Shown one piece after another: positions 1,852 to 18,256 of a stretch of 18,256 bases of DNA. This DNA comes from a virus. The DNA is taken from UHGV virus genome UHGV-0117054. One strand, given 5' to 3'. Below the pieces are notes generated by a model. The model made no database searches, had not been told where the DNA came from, and saw nothing but the letters and a program-made list of their open reading frames with translations. The position numbers and the translations under genes are program-made. How positions within the stretch are numbered: position 1 is the stretch's first letter; each line of letters starts with the position of its first letter.

Positions 1852-2526
1852 ATGAATGCACTAATCGACATTGGCGAGTTTTCTGTCAGTGATGGCCGTG
1901 AAGGAGGAAAAGACTACCTGCTGAGACCATCACTGATGGCTATGACGCGGATCGGCAATCCAGCGGAGATTGTTCAGGCGTATGCCACGGTGCACGGTAG
2001 CGATGTTGCTGCCGTCATCCAGTTCTGTACTGATACGCTTGGCCGCTTTCCGGACTGGCTGTCGCCATCCATGAATCGCATCGCAGAACGGCTGCTATCG
2101 CTGAGTATGCACATCATGCAGGCCTGCTGTGATGACGATCTTACCCCGATGATAGGTGAGTGGAAAGGGTGGAGCCGGTACGTTGTTTACCGGCCCGGGC
2201 AGATGCCGAGAAACGACATCATCGTGCTGGCTCAGCACCTTATGCAGCATGGCGTCGTAGGTAAGGCCAGTGTGCGCCGCCTGCAGCGGCATGAGTCAGG
2301 TGAAACGACGAACGAGTTTAAGGTCTTCGACTACATCAGCGCGGCGCGTAGCCACTTCGGCATGAGCCGGGAAGAGGCTGCGGCGCTGACAATGACTGAG
2401 TTTCAGCTGATGCTGGCGCAGAAATACCCCGATCAGAAGGGCTTCACCCGCGAAGAGTACGACGCGGTTGCTGATGACTACCTGAAAAAGCAGGCGGCAC
2501 GCCGGGCGCAGGCGAATCAGAAGTAA
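1852..2526 (+). CDS. Putative tail assembly chaperone (assigned by position); alternative GTG start at 1807
   Basis: ORF follows the major tail gene and precedes the tape measure region. ATG at 1852 has gggaagga upstream; GTG at 1807 has no good SD. No canonical G/GT frameshift partner was found. Confidence 0.35.
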   Translation: MNALIDIGEFSVSDGREGGKDYLLRPSLMAMTRIGNPAEIVQAYATVHGSDVAAVIQFCTDTLGRFPDWLSPSMNRIAERLLSLSMHIMQACCDDDLTPMIGEWKGWSRYVVYRPGQMPRNDIIVLAQHLMQHGVVGKASVRRLQRHESGETTNEFKVFDYISAARSHFGMSREEAAALTMTEFQLMLAQKYPDQKGFTREEYDAVADDYLKKQAARRAQANQK

Positions 2527-2635
2527 TCGGCATTCACTCCGGGCACCTCTTGAGATCAATAAATCAGCAGTTGCCGTTGCGCCTGTGCTATTCCTGGGTA
2601 GGATGTTTCCATTTTTACCAATCGGGAATAGGGAT

Positions 2636-2974
2636 ATGAAGAAGTTAGCTTTGGCATTGCTTGCAGTGGTTTCTTTGGGGGCTTCTGCGTCAAATACGTA
2701 CACAAAAGAACAACTCAACTCAATGGCTGCATCTGGGAGTTACCCAGAACAGGAATCGCCAGTTACTAAGAGCGTTGAGTCAGTGTCATTTGAGAGGTGT
2801 AAGCAAGACACCTACGGCGTTTATAACCAAGTAGCTGGCAATTATCCGGCACAAGAAGTTGTCAACACCGGCATCCTTTACATTGTTAAAATTTGGACCA
2901 ATGACGGCGTGATCATGGTTTCATGTTCAGGGCCTGATGGTAAAAAACTTGTCACTCAATCCTCCTACAAGTAA
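2636..2974 (+). CDS. Secreted/periplasmic hypothetical protein with cleavable signal peptide (moron)
   Basis: N-terminus MKKLALALLAVVSLGASA|SN is a classic Sec signal peptide with an AxA site. The mature part has two Cys. The segment is AT-rich compared with flanking tail genes. Confidence 0.55.
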   Translation: MKKLALALLAVVSLGASASNTYTKEQLNSMAASGSYPEQESPVTKSVESVSFERCKQDTYGVYNQVAGNYPAQEVVNTGILYIVKIWTNDGVIMVSCSGPDGKKLVTQSSYK

Positions 2975-2984
2975 GGGAATATCT

Positions 2985-3317
2985 ATGAGCGAACAAGAGC
3001 AACTGCAGAGTTTGAGTGAAGAGGTGGCCAGAGCATACCTGCGCCACCTGGAAGCAACCACTGGCGGAAATACGGTTACTTACGATGGTGTGACAAGATC
3101 AATTACTCTCGAAGAACTAGTTTTTGGCCTAATAGGGGTCGCACATTTCAATGCTAAAAACCACCCAAACGACGAGATACTAAAAGACCCATATAAACAT
3201 CTCTCGCACATGATTGATATTTTATCAAAGCCATATGTGATAACTGAGTTCGGTCTAAAAGTTATTGAACATATGAATGAAATTTCCATTCATAAACAGC
3301 GTGGGGTGTTGATGTGA
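2985..3317 (+). CDS. Hypothetical cytoplasmic protein (moron)
   Basis: 110-aa ORF with ATG start and SD aaggga upstream. Low GC, no signal peptide. Its 3' end overlaps the next gene (GTG/ATGTGA junction). Confidence 0.5.
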   Translation: MSEQEQLQSLSEEVARAYLRHLEATTGGNTVTYDGVTRSITLEELVFGLIGVAHFNAKNHPNDEILKDPYKHLSHMIDILSKPYVITEFGLKVIEHMNEISIHKQRGVLM

Positions 3318-3691
3318 AAACGGGTGCAATGTGCTTATCTTTGCTGTTTTTAATTTCTGGTTGCGATGATGGCGGAAAAGGAAGTGTAGCTAACGGGGCC
3401 GATACAGCTATAACAATGTTCAAATCATCTATGAGTGAGGGTGATCATCCACCCTTCGAATATCAGCGCCTCGTATTCAAACCAGATCAGCAAAACTCAA
3501 GCAAGGTAATAAGTGGATGGGTTTGCGGAGATGGAAGCATGAAGCGTGATGATAAGACCTTTAACTTTAAAGTTAGAGGTCATGTTATTAAGTCAGAAGA
3601 TATTTCATATGTTGGTGACATAGCCGCACTGCTTTCTGATACTGAAATGGTCAAATACGACATTCTTTACAATAAGAATTGCAAAGAATAA
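3314..3691 (+). CDS. Lipoprotein with predicted inner-membrane retention (moron); start GTG 3314 or ATG 3329
   Basis: N-terminus MKTGAMCLSLLFLISGC carries a lipobox (ISGC). The residue after the lipid-modified Cys is Asp (CDD), the +2 Asp Lol-avoidance signal known in E. coli. Low GC. Confidence 0.6.
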   Translation: MKTGAMCLSLLFLISGCDDGGKGSVANGADTAITMFKSSMSEGDHPPFEYQRLVFKPDQQNSSKVISGWVCGDGSMKRDDKTFNFKVRGHVIKSEDISYVGDIAALLSDTEMVKYDILYNKNCKE

Positions 3692-3711
3692 GCAGGAAGA
3701 AATCTTAACAA

Positions 3712-3737
3712 ACCTCGCCTCGGCGGGGTTTTTTATT
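3712..3737 (+). terminator. Intrinsic terminator ending the moron cluster, just upstream of the tape measure gene
   Basis: cctcgcc-tc-ggcgggg hairpin followed by ttttttatt. The tape measure SD (ggag) follows immediately. Confidence 0.55.
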
Positions 3738-3751
3738 GCCCGGAGATAGCA

Positions 3752-6688
3752 ATGGCAAAAGAACAAAATGCTGGCAGCGTCGTCTATACGGTAAGCGCTG
3801 AGATCGAGCCCCTACTGATTGCTGGTAAGCAGGCCATTGATGTTCTGGATAAGCTGGATGCAGCCGCTCAACAATCTGGCAAGGGAATGGATAGCCTGGA
3901 CCAGAGTACATCCCATACTGGATCGGCGTTCAACGAACTGGCTGGATATGCCAATTCAATGGATAACCAACTGCGTAAACTGAACACCAATGTAAGCGGC
4001 ATAGCTCGCGCCATGGAAGAAGCTCGCAGCGGTACCGGGGGAGCAAACAGCGAATTCAATCGCGCTGAATCTATCATTGAGGCATTGGGTAACCAGTTGG
4101 CAATACTGGACGAGGCGCAGGAGAATGGTGCTCGCAGCGCTGCAGTGCTGGCAGCCCAGTTGCGCGCTGGCTCTAAAGCCACCGACGAAGAGAAGCAGAA
4201 GATCGGCGAGCTTACTGGTCGCTTATATGACATGAAGACTGGCGTTGAAAATGGCGCAAAAGGCACTGGCAGCTGGAAGTCCAGCATGCAGCAGGCTGGT
4301 TACCAGGTTCAGGACTTCATTATTCAGGTGCAGGGAGGTCAATCTGCGCTGGTGGCTTTCGCTCAGCAGGGCTCTCAGCTTGCTGGCGCATTCGGTCCGG
4401 GCGGTGCGATTGTCGGTTCTATCATTGCGCTGAGCTCGGTTATCGCTGGTGTGCTGATTACTTCGCTCAATGGCGGAAAGAACGCCATGGATGCTCTTAA
4501 GAGCGCTGCTGAAACCATGGATAAGGTTATTACCATTTCACAAAATGGTGTGGCCGCCCTCTCTGATAAATATGCCGCTCTGGCACAGACAAATATTGCT
4601 GTGGCAACCTTGATGAAAAAGCAGGCCGAGCTGGAATTGCAGGCTGCTCTATCAAACGTCTCAAAAGAAGTACAAAAGGCATCGAGTGACTTCATTAGCT
4701 TTGGTGATTCATTGATGTCTTCGCTGGGCGGTGGATATGCCAGCGTAAAATTATTTAATGACTATTTGTCCACGCTAAATATAACCACTAACGATTTCAG
4801 TGAGGCATGGAAGCAGGCAGCTGCCAGCGGGCAGGATGGTCAGTCAACGATGAACTCTATGGTGGCAACTGTTGCGGCCCTGTCTACCAAGTTCGATATT
4901 AGCGATCAGAAAGCTTTTGAGTTTGCTAAGCAACTTTCTGACATAGCGAAAACACCAACTGATGAAAAACTTAAGGCATTGGTTGTGACTCTGCAGGATG
5001 TCGGGAATGGGCAATCTTCTGGCGCGGCTAAGGCCCGGGAATATGCCAAAAGTCTCTTAACCATCATGGAGACAAGCACAGACGCTACTTCACGCCTTAA
5101 GGCTCTGAAAGAGATGACTGATAGCCTGACTTCCAGCCAGGATAAGGCGCTAAAAATCGCTCAGCAGGAGCTGTTTATTGCGCGGCAAACTGGTGAGGCT
5201 CAAATGAAAGCCAAGGCTTGGCGAGATGCCGAAACGCAGGGGCTGAAAGAGGGGACGGAAGCATTCAGGAAATACTACAACGTCAAGCTGGCAACCTATA
5301 AACAGGATGCGGCTAACGCTAACAGCAAGAAGGGAGCCAGTAGCGCTGCGTCAGAAGCTAAGAAGTTAGCCAATCAGCAAGAAACGGTGGCGCAAAAGCT
5401 TGAGAATTTGAGGCAGCAATCAGAGCTGACAGCCAAGTCGACGCAGCAACTCAGCCGCGAGCAGGCCATCCTCACTGCCCAGCAATCCTTGGGTGCAGCA
5501 GCAACTCAAAAAGACCTCGATCTTGCCGGACAGTATGCCGCTGCAAAATGGGATACGGCCAATGCGCTCAAAGCGCAGGCCGCCGCCGAGAAGCTCCTGC
5601 CGGAAGCGCGCGAAAACGCCAGCTATAAGCAGGATGTTGAGGATCTGAATACTGCCCTGACCGCGAAGAAAATCAGCCAGGAACAATACAACGAGACCGC
5701 AGAGCGCCTGGAGGCAACGCACCAGAACAACCTCGCCAAAATCCGTGCGCAGCAGGCAGTAACACCGCAGCAGGAGGCCGCTGGCGGCGTCGACCCGGTG
5801 CAGCAGCTGGCGAATGAGAACGCGCGTAAGCTGGCGCTCATTCAGCAGTACGAGCAGCAGGGCGTATTAACCCACCAGAATGCTTTGGCGCTGCGAGCTG
5901 CTGCTGATACAGAGTACGAGCAGGCGCGCATCGCTGCACAGTGGGAGATTTACCGTAATCAGAGCACTGGCAATGAACTGCTGGCCACCTCGCTGGAAGG
6001 CCTGCAGAGCGGGGCAACCAATGCCCTCACTGGATTAATCAACGGCACCCAGAGCCTGCAGGAGGCAATGGCTAACGTTGGCTCGACCATCATCAACAGC
6101 GTGATCGGCAGCCTCGTAGAAATGGGCATGCAGTGGGTTAAAAATCAGGTGATGGGGCAGGCAGCGGCGGCAGCCTCTCTGGCATCTACCATGGCGCAGG
6201 CAACTGCTGCAGCATCAGCTTGGGCGCCGGCAGCAATGAGTGCGTCGATCGCCACGTACGGCAGCGCCGCTGCTGTTGGTCAATCGGCTTATGCAGCCTC
6301 TCTTCTGTCAGCCAAGGGGTTAGCTGTCGCCGGTGCCCGCGAACACGGCGGGCCGGTCTCGGCCAGCTCCATGTACCGTGTGGGCGAAGGTGGCAAACCT
6401 GAGATTTTCAAAGCCAGCAATGGCAGCCAGTACATGATCCCCGGCGATAACGGTCGCGTCATCAGTAACCGCGATATTGGCGGTAGTGGCGGGGGGGCGT
6501 TCAATTACAGCCCGGTCATTCAGGTTAACGGGGATCCGACTGAGCAGCAGTTGGCCATGCTCGAGGCCGCGGTCAAGCGCGGCGCGCAGCAGGGCTATGC
6601 CATGGCCGTCAGCGACGTCGCCAGCGGCAAAGGAAAACTCTCCAACGCTCTGACCAACAACTTCAACACCAGTCAACGCCTCACATAA
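3752..6688 (+). CDS. Tail tape measure protein
   Basis: 978 aa, Ala/Gln/Glu-rich with long predicted coiled-coil stretches. It has an internal hydrophobic Gly-rich segment (…AFAQQGSQLAGAFGPGGAIVGSIIALSSVIAGVLITSL…). The C-terminal region (…YRVGEGGKPEIF…) resembles the lambda gpH C-terminus as I recall it. Confidence 0.9.
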   Translation: MAKEQNAGSVVYTVSAEIEPLLIAGKQAIDVLDKLDAAAQQSGKGMDSLDQSTSHTGSAFNELAGYANSMDNQLRKLNTNVSGIARAMEEARSGTGGANSEFNRAESIIEALGNQLAILDEAQENGARSAAVLAAQLRAGSKATDEEKQKIGELTGRLYDMKTGVENGAKGTGSWKSSMQQAGYQVQDFIIQVQGGQSALVAFAQQGSQLAGAFGPGGAIVGSIIALSSVIAGVLITSLNGGKNAMDALKSAAETMDKVITISQNGVAALSDKYAALAQTNIAVATLMKKQAELELQAALSNVSKEVQKASSDFISFGDSLMSSLGGGYASVKLFNDYLSTLNITTNDFSEAWKQAAASGQDGQSTMNSMVATVAALSTKFDISDQKAFEFAKQLSDIAKTPTDEKLKALVVTLQDVGNGQSSGAAKAREYAKSLLTIMETSTDATSRLKALKEMTDSLTSSQDKALKIAQQELFIARQTGEAQMKAKAWRDAETQGLKEGTEAFRKYYNVKLATYKQDAANANSKKGASSAASEAKKLANQQETVAQKLENLRQQSELTAKSTQQLSREQAILTAQQSLGAAATQKDLDLAGQYAAAKWDTANALKAQAAAEKLLPEARENASYKQDVEDLNTALTAKKISQEQYNETAERLEATHQNNLAKIRAQQAVTPQQEAAGGVDPVQQLANENARKLALIQQYEQQGVLTHQNALALRAAADTEYEQARIAAQWEIYRNQSTGNELLATSLEGLQSGATNALTGLINGTQSLQEAMANVGSTIINSVIGSLVEMGMQWVKNQVMGQAAAAASLASTMAQATAAASAWAPAAMSASIATYGSAAAVGQSAYAASLLSAKGLAVAGAREHGGPVSASSMYRVGEGGKPEIFKASNGSQYMIPGDNGRVISNRDIGGSGGGAFNYSPVIQVNGDPTEQQLAMLEAAVKRGAQQGYAMAVSDVASGKGKLSNALTNNFNTSQRLT

Positions 6689-7653: not shown

Positions 7654-7708
7654 TGCTTGACCCTCCCAGAGTTCAATATTTCTCCTCACCTTAAGTGAAG
7701 GAGGATTT

Positions 7709-8263
7709 ATGCTCGGCTCTCTCAGGGAAATTGTCTTCTCCGTTGCAAAGCATGAAGTTGGACACTGGCTCGCATGGCATTGCTATGGCGGATCTTCGTC
7801 TGGCATCGAAGTAAAAATTCTATCGATTAATGGGCGACACACAGGTGCTTTTATCCCTGATATGGAGTGGGAAGTATCTACTCTGGATGAAGCCTGTAAA
7901 TATGTAAAAGCCAGGCTGCTGTGCCTACACGCTGGTATTTATGCGGAATCTTTCCTCGGTGATATTTATGACGCAGAGCGCATAAGCCGTGAGTTTAACC
8001 ACCTCGGCGCAGCAGCATCTGACTTTCACCGTAGTATTGAGCTTGCCTGGGCTTACTGCAACCTGACAGGCCGCTCAGATCAATACAGCGCGGTTTGTAG
8101 CGAAATAGACCAGGAGGCAGCCAGTCTGGTGGCGGATAATTTTGAATTTATTAAGCACGCAGCGAAGGCGATATCAGACATGGCGGCTTACGAAGGTCAG
8201 CTTATTAAGCTTCCTGACTATGAACTGCAATCCATGTATGAAAAATTTAAACGTCAGAGGTGA
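7709..8263 (+). CDS. Standalone FtsH-like (M41 family) zinc metallopeptidase domain protein, no AAA+ or membrane module
   Basis: HEVGH (HExxH) at residues 15-19. Downstream blocks line up with the E. coli FtsH protease domain as I recall it: EVKILSINGRHTGAF vs KVTIIPRGRALGVTF; LHAGIYAESFLG vs LYGGRLAEEIIYG; LGAAASDF vs STGASNDI; IDQEAASLVADNFEFIKHAAKAISDMAAYEGQL vs [34 protein letters not shown]. Strong SD (gaaggagga), lower GC than flanking tail genes. Confidence 0.65.
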   Translation: MLGSLREIVFSVAKHEVGHWLAWHCYGGSSSGIEVKILSINGRHTGAFIPDMEWEVSTLDEACKYVKARLLCLHAGIYAESFLGDIYDAERISREFNHLGAAASDFHRSIELAWAYCNLTGRSDQYSAVCSEIDQEAASLVADNFEFIKHAAKAISDMAAYEGQLIKLPDYELQSMYEKFKRQR

Positions 8264-8266
8264 TGA

Positions 8267-8437
8267 ATGGAAAAATTAACGCTTTCGGTAAAAGTTGATA
8301 CCACATCATTAGATGAGGCTATCGAGAAGGTCAGGACCTTAAAAAAAGAATTAAGGGAGCTTGGCCTGCCTTACTTCACCGGCAATCCTCTGGCTGGATA
8401 CCAGCCACAACAAGAAGAAAAAGCCACCAACCAATAA
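8267..8437 (+). CDS. Small hypothetical protein (56 aa) co-located with the M41 peptidase gene
   Basis: ATG 4 nt after the peptidase stop, SD-like gagg upstream. Translation MEKLTLSVKVDTTSLDEAIEKVRTLKKELRELGLPYFTGNPLAGYQPQQEEKATNQ. It ends at the terminator hairpin. Not in the supplied ORF track because it is under 60 aa. Confidence 0.3.
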   Translation: MEKLTLSVKVDTTSLDEAIEKVRTLKKELRELGLPYFTGNPLAGYQPQQEEKATNQ

Positions 8438-8460
8438 GCCGCTTGAAGCGGCTTTTTTTA
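8436..8460 (+). terminator. Intrinsic terminator closing the peptidase moron
   Basis: aagccgc-ttgaa-gcggctt hairpin followed by a run of seven T. It sits between the small ORF stop and the NlpC/P60 gene start. Confidence 0.5.
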
Positions 8461-8470
8461 TGAGGCGCCC

Positions 8471-8851
8471 ATGTTCAATCCCGATAAATACCGTTCTGTC
8501 GAGTGGCAGAAGGGCGGACGCGCTTACCCCGCGCTGGACTGCTTTGGCATCGTCAATGAAATCAGGCGTGACCTTGGCCTGGCTCCGTGGCCTGATTTTG
8601 CCGGGGTTACGAAGGATGATAACGGCCTCGACCGGGAGGCGCGCGGACTGATGGCTGGCCTGACGCGATGTGAGCCTGCCCCGGGCGCGGGTATCGCCTG
8701 TTATTCAGGCTCTGTGGTGACGCACGTTGCCATCGTTGTTGAGATTGATGGCCAGCTTCGCGCCGCGGAGTGCAATCCCCGCACTAACGTAACCTTCCTG
8801 CCGCTGGCGCGGTTTGCGCGCCGCTTTGTTCGCGTGGAGTATTACCAGTGA
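8471..8851 (+). CDS. NlpC/P60-family tail-associated peptidase (lambda gpK C-terminal-domain-like)
   Basis: 126 aa. ALDCFGIV supplies a candidate catalytic Cys and VTHVAIVV a candidate His, spaced as in NlpC/P60 papain-like folds. It sits immediately upstream of the J-like gene with a GTGA stop/start overlap. Confidence 0.65.
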   Translation: MFNPDKYRSVEWQKGGRAYPALDCFGIVNEIRRDLGLAPWPDFAGVTKDDNGLDREARGLMAGLTRCEPAPGAGIACYSGSVVTHVAIVVEIDGQLRAAECNPRTNVTFLPLARFARRFVRVEYYQ

Positions 8852-14897: not shown

Positions 14898-16727
14898 ATG
14901 ATAAACTTTATTGTTTTAAATGGAAAAAGCGAGTCTGTTAAGAAATTATACGAGACAGCGCAGCAGGCCCTAAAAAGGAACTTAACATTTAAGCCAGTAG
15001 AGGTGGCTAATAAAATATCTGGTAGCGGAGCTTGGGCATATACAGCATGTGGCAATGCGGAAGGCGAAATATCAAAAAGAATAACATCTAAGCAAAGCGG
15101 CGTATGCCTGATAAATGGCCCTGTTTTAAGGATGTGTGATAGCTATGATGTCTCAGATGCCGCACTTGATGCCTCCACCAAAAACGATGCGGAATACATG
15201 TTTGACAATATTTCCGGGTCTTACAACTTCGTTTCAATAACCTCTAAGAATGGCCTCCTTGCTTTCGGCGATTTCTCAGGCACCTGTCCTATTTATTACA
15301 CAATAATTGATGGCGTAACTTGCGTAAGTAACCGGGCATCTGCATTGCATGAACTGCGCGGGAATAGTAAATATAATATTTCTTCTTTGAGCTGGTTAAT
15401 TGGGCATGCCAATATATTTGGCAATGAGTCACCTTTTGAATGCGTGTATTCAATTACAGCTGGTAGCTATTTAAAGTCACCACTTGGTTCAACAACAGTA
15501 AACATCAATAAATTTAAGAATCAGATATGGCCTTCAAATGACGATGCTCAGTATCTGAACGACCTCTCAGGTGATGATTGGGATTTGATAGTAGATGAGT
15601 TGGTGAAAAACTTTAAGGCTGCAAGTGAAAACATTCCCGGCGAACTCCGTTTATCACTCACCGGTGGTAAGGACTCTCGCCTTGTCCTTGCGCTGGCATT
15701 GGGTGCAGGATTCAAAGACAGGATCACCACATTTACGAACGGCCCGGAAGGCAGCCCAGAGATAAGCTGTGCACAGAACATCGCCAACAAAATCGGCGTT
15801 AAGCACGTCGCTAACGTTAAGGCTCCACAAGTTAAAGCTCAGGATTTTGCTAATTCATGGGAAAAACTTAACTGGCATTCCTACAGAATGGAAAGTTATA
15901 TTTGCCCATGGGATGGAGCAACAGCTGAACGCACCATCAAAAATATAACGTCCGATATGACTGGCTTTGGCGGCGAGCTATATCGCGGACCCGGCGGACA
16001 CGCCAAGCAGTTTAAAAACCTGTCCTTTATGGACAATAAAGATGCAATTCTTTCTAAGTTCATAAACTACCATCAGAAGATGGATCCATTAAACATTCTC
16101 TCCAGTTTGTATAAAAACGCTCAAATAGGTTGGTTCTACGGCTGGCTTGAGGAGAATATTAAATCTGTAAGGTTTGATGTTTTACCTGAGAAGTTCTTCG
16201 TAGAAAACCGTCTTTCCAATTGGAACGGCCCTCTTGCTCAGAACGTCACAGGCAGAATTAAACTGATGCCACTTCTCTCTCCTAAAGTTGCGCGTTTGGT
16301 ATTCAAGCTCAGCCCGGAGGCCAGGAACAAAGAATTGTTCCACTACAGCGTCATGGCAAAGCTGGCTCCTGAATTAGTTTCTCTGCCATTTTTGAATGCG
16401 ACATGGGATAAATCATTGCAGGGTAGATTTGGCCTTGATATCGCAGATGCTCCTTATGATAGCGGGGTTAAATTCACGCCAAGGTCTGTGCAAGCATGGC
16501 AGGCTCAATTTGTCGAAGGTCAGCGAGAAGAAATCGTGCACTTGCTTGAAAGAGCCGCCGAATATACAAACATCAGAGAGATATTTGACGTCGATAAATT
16601 ATGCGAGTACGTCCGGGAAAAGGAAGGGATGAACACCATAGAAATCAAAACTATCCTCTCCTCAATTGCTGTTGCCATTACCTTGCTGAATGATCAGGAA
16701 AGCGTAGAGGACCTTGGCCAGGTGTAA
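14898..16727 (+). CDS. Asparagine synthetase (AsnB) family amidoligase-like protein; N-terminal domain lacks the Cys nucleophile
   Basis: 609 aa. PP-loop SLTGGKDS at residues ~254-260 (AsnB has SGGLDS near 234-239). TGFGGELYRG matches the AsnB GEGxDExFGGY block and GRIKLMPLLSP the E-x-R-x-PFLD block. FGDFSGTCPIYY matches the RDxxGxKPLYY motif of the N-terminal domain. It starts MINF…, not MC…. GC is about 38-40%. Confidence 0.75.
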   Translation: MINFIVLNGKSESVKKLYETAQQALKRNLTFKPVEVANKISGSGAWAYTACGNAEGEISKRITSKQSGVCLINGPVLRMCDSYDVSDAALDASTKNDAEYMFDNISGSYNFVSITSKNGLLAFGDFSGTCPIYYTIIDGVTCVSNRASALHELRGNSKYNISSLSWLIGHANIFGNESPFECVYSITAGSYLKSPLGSTTVNINKFKNQIWPSNDDAQYLNDLSGDDWDLIVDELVKNFKAASENIPGELRLSLTGGKDSRLVLALALGAGFKDRITTFTNGPEGSPEISCAQNIANKIGVKHVANVKAPQVKAQDFANSWEKLNWHSYRMESYICPWDGATAERTIKNITSDMTGFGGELYRGPGGHAKQFKNLSFMDNKDAILSKFINYHQKMDPLNILSSLYKNAQIGWFYGWLEENIKSVRFDVLPEKFFVENRLSNWNGPLAQNVTGRIKLMPLLSPKVARLVFKLSPEARNKELFHYSVMAKLAPELVSLPFLNATWDKSLQGRFGLDIADAPYDSGVKFTPRSVQAWQAQFVEGQREEIVHLLERAAEYTNIREIFDVDKLCEYVREKEGMNTIEIKTILSSIAVAITLLNDQESVEDLGQV

Positions 16728-17058: not shown

Positions 17059-17453
17059 TGGGCTTCCCTTCGCCGGCTGGCGACTATGTAGAGCAGCGGT
17101 TAACTCCGGAGCGAATCTGCGGTGTTGGCGTCGACACTCGCATCCTGGAAACCTCATCCGGCTTTGCCGTTATCGAGCCGTGCACCAGGCTGGTACAGAA
17201 TCAGGTTCTGCTGATTTTATCTGGCGGCAGAACGCAGTTTGCCCGGGTAATGGGTAGGGCATTAATCACTGATGATGGTGAAGCGATCGAAGGGGAGGAG
17301 GCGGAGGAAGTTGAGGTGCTGGGGCGCGTGACGTTCTTCATCAACAGCGCGCTACAGGATGACAGGGTGGGTGATGGGTGGCATTACGCCACCTTTTCAT
17401 CAAGCCAGTCCGCCCACCACTGCATCATTTCTCTGCGCTTATCGAGATACTGA
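17058..17453 (+). CDS. UmuD'-like (peptidase S24-fold) protein, natively leaderless and likely catalytically degenerate
   Basis: N-terminus MGFPSPAGDYVEQR matches the UmuD segment right after the Cys24-Gly25 cleavage site (CGFPSPAADYVEQR), so the ORF begins where processed UmuD' begins. An in-frame stop lies 18 nt upstream. The SGDSM serine motif and the catalytic KK region are not recognisable. GGAGG sits 7 nt before the ATG. The last ~23 codons overlap the integrase 3' end. Confidence 0.6.
   Translation: MGFPSPAGDYVEQRLTPERICGVGVDTRILETSSGFAVIEPCTRLVQNQVLLILSGGRTQFARVMGRALITDDGEAIEGEEAEEVEVLGRVTFFINSALQDDRVGDGWHYATFSSSQSAHHCIISLRLSRY
17377..17398 (+). terminator. Hairpin plus T-tract at the convergent junction with the integrase (possible + strand terminator)
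   Basis: ggtggc-attac-gccacc stem-loop followed by tttt. It lies inside the C-terminal extension of the UmuD'-like ORF and over the integrase stop codon. Confidence 0.35.
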
Positions 17454-18256
17454 GCATGGTTGTAAATCCCGCGCACAGATCCGCCGTTGGCATGTGCCAG
17501 TTGCACTTCAATAGCATCAGCAGGCCATTCGTGCTCGTTCATAATCGTGCTGAATTCATGCCTGAATCCGTGACCGCTTTCCAGACCCTCATAGCCGATT
17601 TGTTTGATCACAAGCAATACCGCGTTCTCGCAGATTGGCTTCTTCTTATCGTTGCGCCCGGCAAAAACAAACTCTGATACTGGTTTAGTGATTGAGCTTA
17701 GCGTAGTGAGAAGTTCAACCACCTGGTCTGACATCGGGACCACATGAATTTTGCGTCCCTTCATCACACTGGCGTCGATGGTGATAATCCTGTTTTCAAA
17801 ATCGACGTTCTTCCATAGCATGGAACGAAGCTCTTTCGTTCTTAGGGCTGTGTAGCGTAAAACTTTGGTCGCAATGAGCGATACGATACTTCCTGAAAAT
17901 GTTGCCAGTGCTTTGTTGAATGCCGGGATCTGGTCTGCAGGAAGAAACGGGAAGTTCTTCTTGCGGTATCCCTTCATGGCGTCAGCAAGGTCAGGTGCCG
18001 GGTTATATTTAGCCCTTCCGGTGACAATAGCGTAACGGAAAACCTCGCCGCATCTTCTGCGTGCTTTGTTGGCTCGCTCCATTGCACCGCGATCTTCAAA
18101 TCTGCGGATTACTTCCAGCAGTTGCATCGGCTCAATATCCTGAATCTCAAGGCCGCCGATGATGGGTAAAATGTCGTCATCAAACATTTTTGCAAGTTCA
18201 GTTGCATAGCCTACTGACCAGACTTGCTTCTTGTGCTCGTACCATTCCTTGTAAAT
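17384..18256 (-). CDS. int: Tyrosine recombinase / phage integrase (P4-type), N-terminus beyond the window edge
   Basis: The reverse frame stays open to the window end (…IYKEWYEHKKQVWSVGYATELAKMFDDD…). The C-terminal catalytic region has HGFRHEFST (HxxR) and VRGIYNHAQYLD (catalytic Tyr), ending …QWWADWLDEKVA. Confidence 0.9.
   Translation of the reverse strand: MYKEWYEHKKQVWSVGYATELAKMFDDDILPIIGGLEIQDIEPMQLLEVIRRFEDRGAMERANKARRRCGEVFRYAIVTGRAKYNPAPDLADAMKGYRKKNFPFLPADQIPAFNKALATFSGSIVSLIATKVLRYTALRTKELRSMLWKNVDFENRIITIDASVMKGRKIHVVPMSDQVVELLTTLSSITKPVSEFVFAGRNDKKKPICENAVLLVIKQIGYEGLESGHGFRHEFSTIMNEHEWPADAIEVQLAHANGGSVRGIYNHAQYLDKRREMMQWWADWLDEKVA

Follow-up and report, generated by a model that had tools for sequence, protein, structure and literature searches.

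The window analyzed here is an 18,256-nucleotide (18.3-kb) stretch of DNA that represents the right arm of a temperate siphovirus prophage (UHGV-0117054). Within it, positions 2527 to 3737 are very probably an accessory moron array, horizontally acquired at a classic moron site between a DUF6246 gene and the tape measure protein (TMP) gene. The array holds three genes, referred to here as A, B, and C, which encode a predicted periplasmic protein, a cytoplasmic protein, and a predicted lipoprotein, respectively. The reading we favor, with a probability of roughly 0.55, combines this moron status with superinfection exclusion by A and C at the stage of DNA entry; taken by itself, the proposal that A and/or C function in anti-phage exclusion, for which we argue by analogy, has an even chance at best. 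Because A, B, and C match no family of known function, their role has to be read from context, and exclusion is suggested by the site and layout of HK97 gene 15, a terminator of the type found behind cor, the turnover of genes next to the TMP gene, and the occurrence of C in apparent phage satellites.

The 1.2-kb insert has a GC content of 0.425, compared to 0.571 for positions 1 to 2526 and 0.547 for the TMP gene, and the GC content at third codon positions is 0.35 to 0.45 for A, B, and C versus 0.59 to 0.69 for the tube, DUF6246, and TMP genes. It spans exactly the interval from the DUF6246 stop codon to the TMP ribosome-binding site. An empty site is present in Escherichia coli 30EVA1 (L006; L numbers denote the loci compared), where CCGGAGAATGAC stands between the DUF6246 stop and the TMP ATG. 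The left flank of this relative is 83% identical to the window up to the end of DUF6246, and the N terminus of its TMP is homologous to that of the window TMP (MAGEKDAGSIVYTVSA against MAKEQNAGSVVYTVSA). As the same CCGGAGA-ATG lies behind the terminator in the window and directly behind the DUF6246 stop in 30EVA1, the limits of the insert can be set at exactly 2527 and 3737. The 30EVA1 TMP is annotated in RefSeq from 9325, whereas the open reading frame (ORF) and homology begin at 8554 (L006:8554-11649), so that the RefSeq gene is probably 771 nt too short.

The contents of the slot differ from those of the window in several relatives (L005, L007, L009, L027, L061, and others). For example, L027 carries B and C without A behind an identical upstream sequence, A being cleanly missing and B following directly. 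C occurs without A or B in Hafnia L009, L061, L062, L064, and L067, and L061 and L062 carry C alone despite tube proteins that are 99 to 100% identical. Conversely, A is accompanied by other exported proteins in SPN3UB, Midgardsormr38, and Klebsiella phages, and unrelated cargo fills the same slot in other relatives, such as KilA-N, RelE/HTH, DUF4065, and arc/mnt/ant immI-like genes, the last of which sit upstream of A. The empty site and these variable contents indicate that the cluster is accessory and composite rather than structural. No meaningful repeats were found in the region. Differences among homologues are concentrated at third codon positions (0.36 to 0.68, versus 0.05 to 0.31 at second positions, in 11 pairwise comparisons of A, B, and C), which shows that all three are real genes under purifying selection.

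An initial annotation of this DNA, which had called for the insertion to be compared across related genomes, described the three genes as one unit and held that the TMP gene normally follows the chaperone directly. The comparison supports neither point: judging from the sequences of the relatives, A-B-C is made up of two or three independently mobile cassettes (A, and a bicistron of B and C, the latter also moving by itself), and occupied slots are the rule in this phage lineage. The same annotation placed the insert between a tail chaperone and the TMP gene. The position is correct, but the "chaperone" is the DUF6246 protein, which lies at the tail assembly chaperone (TAC) position (tail tube gene, DUF6246, TMP) and would be assigned that role from position only; it has no PDB match and no TAC-family match.

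These comparisons also bear on whether A, B, and C are conserved structural or assembly components of the tail, the outcome that the initial annotation had set against its own reading. We consider this extremely improbable, although the genes do lie among tail genes and A homologues are fairly conserved (60 to 83% identical) across several genera. Presence varies among near-identical tail modules, one relative has an empty site, the composition is foreign, and the export signals of the products are incompatible with virion assembly in the cytoplasm. Moreover, C homologues are found outside tail operons, in islands where TMP is the only detected tail gene, and A homologues also occur on viral contigs without a DUF6246 or TMP match within about 6 kb.

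Gene A (2636 to 2974, plus strand) encodes a 112-amino-acid (aa) precursor with a Sec signal (MKKLALALLAVVSLGASA|SN; SNTY...). Cleavage is predicted at ASA|S after residue 18, leaving a mature protein of 94 aa with two conserved Cys. The A family keeps the signal peptide, the two Cys (both invariant), and an invariant TK..LN motif just past the predicted cleavage site, and A is predicted to be a soluble, Sec-exported protein of the periplasm.

Gene C (3314 to 3691, plus strand) begins with GTG and encodes a 125-aa prolipoprotein (MKTGAMCLSLLFLISG|CDD; CDDGG...) with the lipobox I14-S15-G16-C17 followed by D18-D19 at positions +2 and +3 and a mature domain of 109 aa. Among 13 aligned homologues, the lipobox Cys is invariant, and the +2 residue is Asp in 11 and Asn in 2. 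Two further Cys are also invariant in this alignment, the pattern expected for a disulfide formed in the periplasm. By the E. coli rule, Asp at +2 with a permissive +3 residue confers Lol avoidance and inner-membrane retention, and C is accordingly predicted to be a lipoprotein on the periplasmic face of the inner membrane. An AlphaFold2 model of C (pLDDT 82.3) shows a helix packed on a curved four-stranded sheet, a cystatin/NTF2-like arrangement. Foldseek comparison of this model to PDB and BFVD gave no match at an E value of ≤0.001 and surfaced only cystatin-, NTF2-, and EagT6-like topologies, and a tblastn search of 50,697 phage records (E ≤ 1) had no match to C. The LP157 lipoprotein family aligned to C in hhalign with a probability of 52%, mostly over the signal peptide.

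Gene B (2985 to 3317, plus strand) encodes a 110-aa cytoplasmic orphan (phrog_19131) with neither a signal peptide nor a hydrophobic segment long enough for a transmembrane (TM) helix. Its last codon and stop (ATG TGA, 3312 to 3317) enclose the GTG start of C, so that the two genes are coupled by a 4-nt overlap. All full-length aligned proteins of the B family end in Met, and this residue is invariant because ATGTGA is at once the last codon, the stop, and the GTG start of the next gene. The GGGG-N5-ATGTGA junction is likewise invariant before at least six unrelated families of downstream exported proteins (e.g., L008:4289-4294 and L016:5328-5333). A profile search of 1.84 billion protein representatives returned 18 matches to B, none with a Pfam domain; the two long ones, repeat proteins of low complexity whose Pfam content is unrelated, were discarded as spurious. 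A subfamily, B', is 39% identical to B (E = 2e-17). B does not fit a TAC of the lambda G/GT type, since it is missing from L006, L009, L061, L062, and others and has no Pfam TAC match. Nor does it fit a product extended by a -1 programmed frameshift: gene C occupies the overlapping -1 frame, starts at a GTG of its own with its own lipoprotein signal, and is found without B elsewhere.

Upstream of A lies a conserved cassette head (2577 to 2635, plus strand) with promoter-like elements and a leader. It consists of a -35 element, TTGCGC (2577 to 2582), a 16-nt spacer, a -10 element, TAGGAT (2599 to 2604; -37 from the ATG), about 19 nt, and the 12-nt leader GGGAATAGGGAT (2624 to 2635), which abuts the ATG of A. 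The consensus across relatives is TGnTAnnnT-N~25-GGGGATAGGGAT-ATG, with a linker form GGG(G/A)ATAGGGAT-ATG; the promoter copy in the window comprises no more than TTGCGC-16-TAGGAT. Heads recur in Enterobacterales phages among L002 to L240 (e.g., L003:3930-4003, L009:5930-6003, and L013:5930-6003; window, 2577 to 2638). TAnnnT was found in 126 of 135 distinct upstream regions at -52 to -28, compared to 59 ± 5 in shuffles, with a sharp peak at -37, and the TG of an extended -10 element was present in 91 of the 135.

The 12-nt leader is nearly invariant before unrelated ORFs of the slot, namely, A, B, C, and a Sec-exported moron protein labeled "T6SS-associated TagO" in RefSeq (L005:3224-3721; the name is likely wrong), and also fronts several other Sec, lipoprotein, TM, or cytoplasmic proteins. 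A scan of IMG/VR yielded at least 81 exact copies of the 15-mer GGGGATAGGGATATG, 79 of which open an ORF of at least 40 aa; 59 of these 79 ORFs have Sec, lipoprotein, or TM N termini according to a crude classifier that called A, B, and C correctly. The SPN3UB head is found identically before different genes: A in SPN3UB, C in Hafnia, and another Sec protein in L043. Together with the A-less L027, identical heads before different genes make the head look like a promoter and 5' untranslated region that doubles as a recombination linker. The leader, with its two GGA motifs, might act as a translational operator in addition to a linker. A full-text search of the literature found no phage publication on the head motif.

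The array is closed by an intrinsic terminator (3710 to 3737, plus strand) with a 9-bp GC-rich stem, a 4-nt loop (stem-loop, 3710 to 3731), and a U-run to 3737, with a folding energy of -14.8 kcal/mol (z = -3.26 versus shuffles). An Rfam scan of 2300 to 3900 gave nothing but subthreshold matches from this terminator. Positions 3709 to 3746 are 97% identical to the terminator behind cor in HK022, HK544, HK75, and mEp phages, and the similarity runs on into the Shine-Dalgarno (SD) sequence of the next structural gene (L115:4693-4735). In the cor phages, that terminator and SD sequence precede the tail fiber gene, not the TMP gene. The terminator with CCGGAGA thus appears to be a moron "tail" module common to C and cor. 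Along with the head and its leader and the ATGTGA junction between the stop of B and the next start, it forms the set of linkers between the pieces of the insert.

Much of the initial annotation therefore stands. The coordinates and features of its low-GC three-gene insert are right, its calls of a signal-peptide protein (A), a cytoplasmic protein (B), and a lipoprotein with Asp at +2 (C) agree with the motifs described above at the sequence level, and the terminator that it proposed is the stem-loop and U-run just given. Its moron reading is borne out by foreign composition, relatives with an empty site or alternative cargo, a promoter-like head, the terminator, and a site shared with HK97 gene 15, the original moron. 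Morons in the Juhala/Hendrix sense, autonomous accessory transcription units within a phage operon, are recognized by absence from the same position in relatives, divergent base composition, an own terminator, and an own promoter active in the repressed prophage, for the last of which the head is a candidate.

The position directly before the TMP gene is characterized by envelope proteins and by rapid exchange. The gene there encodes a Sec-exported protein or lipoprotein in 57 of 108 distinct upstream architectures (28 Sec and 29 lipoprotein). In 1 architecture it encodes a TM protein, and in the remaining 50, most of them satellites, no export signal occurs at this position. At least 13 unrelated families are represented among the envelope genes, whereas A or B is conserved wherever it occurs. 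This turnover probably marks a fast-evolving, arms-race locus.

Several known systems resemble the array. The product of HK97 gene 15, gp15, resides in the inner membrane and prevents HK97 and HK75 from injecting their genomes, an effect that depends on the incoming tail (PMC3594210). In the HK97 record, gene 15 is followed by a terminator and, 13 nt later, by the TMP gene. Gene 15 and the array thus share the site between the gene at the chaperone position and the TMP gene, an own terminator, a deviating composition, and a product that is located, or in the array predicted to be located, at the interface of the inner membrane and periplasm. However, gp15 is a single YebO-like protein of 62 aa with an N-terminal TM helix and has no sequence relationship to A, B, or C, whereas the array comprises three genes in exchangeable cassettes, as read from their sequences.

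Other likenesses are to small phage lipoproteins encoded in tail clusters, Cor (HK022, phi80, N15, and mEp phages) and T5 Llp, whose genes lie beside the gene for the virion protein whose step is blocked. Llp blocks the outer-membrane receptor FhuA. The same receptor is reportedly blocked by Cor (PMC3594210). The sequence shared by C and cor is the terminator and SD sequence behind the genes; their mature domains are unrelated, and an hhalign match between C and Cor is limited to the signal peptide (residues 1 to 21). Unlike these proteins, C has Asp-Asp at +2 and +3, predicting inner-membrane retention. Since C carries this retention signal and A is predicted to be soluble in the periplasm, masking of an outer-membrane receptor is a less likely version of exclusion than a block to injection at the periplasm and inner membrane.

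P22 immI/sieA offers a further parallel, with accessory genes for immunity and exclusion situated inside a late structural operon, and relatives of the window hold arc/mnt/ant immI-like genes in the very slot discussed here. T4 stops injection with the periplasmic Sp (Spackle) and the inner-membrane Imm, the same pair of compartments as predicted for A and C. SieA and Imm are polytopic membrane proteins and not lipoproteins, however, and no homology of A, B, or C to any annotated family was detected. Finally, lipobox proteins of several unrelated sequence types in the structural clusters of mEpimmI coliphages (Lpp021 and Lpp010) exclude phages experimentally (PMC11893012). They resemble C in lying inside a structural gene cluster but come from another phage group, and they are set apart from C by the tblastn search of 50,697 phage records rather than by direct comparison.

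From these parallels, we propose that the array would be transcribed in the lysogen from its own extended -10-type promoter up to its own terminator and that antiterminated late transcription would read through it into the TMP gene. A, soluble in the periplasm, and C, anchored in the inner membrane and facing the periplasm, would be superinfection-exclusion factors that disturb the periplasm/inner-membrane stage of genome injection by incoming siphoviruses, the blocked stage being the one carried out by the ejected TMP. B would be a cytoplasmic partner and may be linked to TMP.

Several results weigh against this exclusion model. A, B, and C belong to no Pfam, NCBIfam, or PADLOC family (PADLOC-DB 2.0, E ≤ 1), profiles of A, B, B', and C have no match among PDB sequences, and the initial annotation had likewise found no assignable motif in the three proteins. 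No homology was detected between A, B, or C and HK97 gp15 (BLASTP and hhalign), HK97 gp13, Llp-type proteins, or, beyond the signal peptide of C, Cor. The predicted folds are generic periplasmic alpha/beta domains. A generic sigma-70 scan called no promoter upstream of A, so that only conservation among the compared heads marks this one as a promoter candidate. No covariation was seen between TMP segments and the family to which the upstream envelope gene belongs, which leaves a pairing specific to TMP type unsupported. Lipoprotein and periplasmic morons can serve other ends, lambda Bor being an example.

Several of these results fit lysogenic conversion unrelated to phage defense, in which A and C would alter envelope physiology (stress or serum resistance, adhesion, or protection from colicins or antibiotics) like lambda Bor and Lom, and the place next to the TMP gene would simply be a permissive site for recombination. 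The generic folds, the lack of PADLOC matches, and the lack of covariation with TMP type are all compatible with such a role, and the head drives many different exported proteins, with no TMP match within 6 kb in 38 of 81 sampled occurrences. We nevertheless regard conversion as unlikely, since the precedents at this exact site or with this exact terminator (HK97 gp15 and cor) are exclusion genes, the neighboring cargo in relatives is of the immunity type (immI and toxin-antitoxin pairs), and the satellite region that also harbors C has been described as a hot spot of immunity genes.

The last point concerns C homologues in Klebsiella and Enterobacter, where they reside in integrative islands of about 17 to 20 kb that are followed by host genes. 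The islands run in the order integrase, alpA, Bro/Ash, primase (DUF927), single-stranded DNA-binding protein, PerC, C or another envelope protein, a 56-aa ORF, B', and TMP (L010 to L015, L063, L065, and L117 to L160; e.g., L117:1-16552), and related elements occur in the viral-contig collection. The island protein of 965 to 1,009 aa is a bona fide TMP homologue (phrog_1538, E = 8e-195), and no other tail gene was detected in the islands (no tube, DUF6246, or other tail-family match). Their gene content suggests phage satellites equipped with a TMP of their own. In phage-inducible chromosomal islands (PICIs), the stretch behind pri is reported to be an immunity hot spot (PMC11364771), and the location of C in this region supports an immunity role for C. 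Vibrio PICI-like elements (PLEs) are satellites that encode their own TAC and TMP and build chimeric tails (bioRxiv 10.1101/2025.01.29.635557). The islands share with them, and with mycobacterial EPIPs, the possession of an own TMP, but PLEs bring a TAC as well, whereas B' is not demonstrably a TAC; the reports on both PLEs and EPIPs are very recent. The satellite likeness is a feature of these relatives, while the window itself holds a complete phage tail module.

B' stands next to TMP in the primase/integrase satellites, usually with the envelope gene just upstream; a full-length TMP gene immediately follows B' in all 43 satellite-type loci examined and also in L010 to L015 and L117. This arrangement raises the alternative that B-type proteins act as partners of TMP. 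In that case, B (and perhaps C along with it, as a unit) would serve tape measure biology rather than host protection, with B expressed late with TMP as a TMP-binding, chaperone-like factor or as a counterdefense that shields TMP from Tab- or Rta-type blockers. TMP-targeting defenses with linked counterdefenses are known (PMC10884400), and the PLEs mentioned above provide a precedent for satellites that supply a TAC and TMP of their own. We judge this quite unlikely for the window, because many phages whose tail modules and TMPs are close to those of the window (L061, L062, L009, and L006) lack B, which is thus not needed for this tail, and because an exported-protein gene and a terminator separate B from TMP in phages. 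In addition, B has no similarity to HK97 gp13 (the HK97 TAC) or to DUF6246, and a -1 frameshift extension is lacking, that frame being taken up by lipoprotein C.

The proteins of the array could instead be made from the late operon, mainly in lytic growth, and play the role of T5 Llp: they would keep newly made virions from injecting their DNA into the lysing cell or debris, and would not serve to protect lysogens. The cluster does lie within the late tail operon in the same orientation, and late antiterminated read-through is expected for morons so placed (PMC3594210). Late self-protection as the principal role is very unlikely in our view: the conserved candidate promoter and strong terminator speak for expression independent of the late operon, and the inner-membrane retention signal of C would not suit the masking of an outer-membrane receptor. 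It overlaps mechanistically with exclusion at DNA entry and does not preclude it.

A broader version of the exclusion model, which we put forward tentatively and consider somewhat unlikely, is that the cluster is one allele of an undescribed cassette-exchange locus that guards genome injection. The head and the terminator tail would then be expression signals and recombination linkers through which dozens of unrelated periplasmic and lipoprotein genes are shuffled before TMP. Such a locus would be common to temperate siphoviruses of Enterobacterales and to TMP-bearing integrase/primase satellites with a B-like partner, the satellites may build chimeric tails that escape the same exclusion proteins, and the leader would be a translational operator. 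Morons as such are textbook elements. In the searchable literature, however, we find no description of the shared head, of the envelope slot with its 13 families, or of these satellites with a TMP. The three families themselves are small and confined to Enterobacterales, with 40, 14, and 14 clusters for A, B, and C, respectively, among 5.8 billion sequences; A and B match PHROGs of unknown function, C matches no PHROG, and as far as our searches show, all three are new and without known function.

The remainder of the window is consistent with a temperate siphovirus, as the integrase gene at 17384 to 18187 (minus strand) indicates. Its closest relatives are E. coli prophages with 93 to 95% nucleotide identity, and several IMG/VR contigs are likewise close. 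The first 8 kb are covered to at least 80% in only 2 of 5,426 complete E. coli genomes. A tail terminator gene (599 to 982) and a tail tube gene with a Big_2 domain (1048 to 1791) precede the DUF6246 gene (1852 to 2526, plus strand; 224 aa; PF19759, E = 2.6e-72; phrog_791), which forms the left boundary of the insert. The right boundary is formed by the SD region CCGGAGA and the TMP gene (3738 to 6688, plus strand), which starts at the ATG at 3752 and encodes 978 aa (phrog_1538, E = 4e-183). This TMP is strongly mosaic, with relatives 99 to 100% identical over residues 1 to 120 and 88 to 98% identical over residues 650 to 978 but only 49 to 51% identical over residues 300 to 650 (3752 to 6688 compared to L001, L069, and L108). 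Beyond it lie genes for a distal tail protein, a DUF1833 protein, a CHAP/NlpC-like protein, a TipJ-like protein, and a beta-helix tailspike, with a UmuD-like gene near the end of the window. The CHAP/NlpC-like tail gene is called "nitrite transporter" in the RefSeq record of one relative (L001:8629-9009), probably an annotation problem.

A second low-GC patch (0.43 to 0.48) at 7654 to 8470, between the DUF1833 and CHAP-like genes, holds ORFs of 184 aa (7709 to 8263; phrog_36675) and 56 aa (8267 to 8437; phrog_17957) that have no PADLOC match. It is missing in the closest relative, L001, where the next tail gene directly follows DUF1833, and is probably another moron. The stretch of lowest GC in the window (14898 to 16727; about 0.41 to 0.45) encodes a 609-aa protein that adjoins the tailspike on one side and the UmuD-like and integrase genes on the other, a place typical for prophage defense cargo. 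Its matches are limited to a weak Asn_synthase/PP-loop-like hit (E = 4e-4) and phrog_16728, with none in PADLOC.

For siphoviruses of Gram-negative bacteria, little is understood of how superinfection is excluded at the injection step, and HK97 gp15 is almost the sole TMP-adjacent case that has been studied. The locus described here supplies three conserved uncharacterized proteins, confident structure models for two of them, and at least 13 alternative envelope families, a collection with which one could study how DNA entry mediated by the tape measure is halted by factors in the periplasm and inner membrane. Systematic searches for such morons in Enterobacterales prophages could start from the sequences of the head and the cor-type terminator, and the TMP-bearing satellites would extend the phenomenon known from Vibrio PLEs and mycobacterial EPIPs to islands of Klebsiella and Enterobacter and to related elements in the viral-contig collection.

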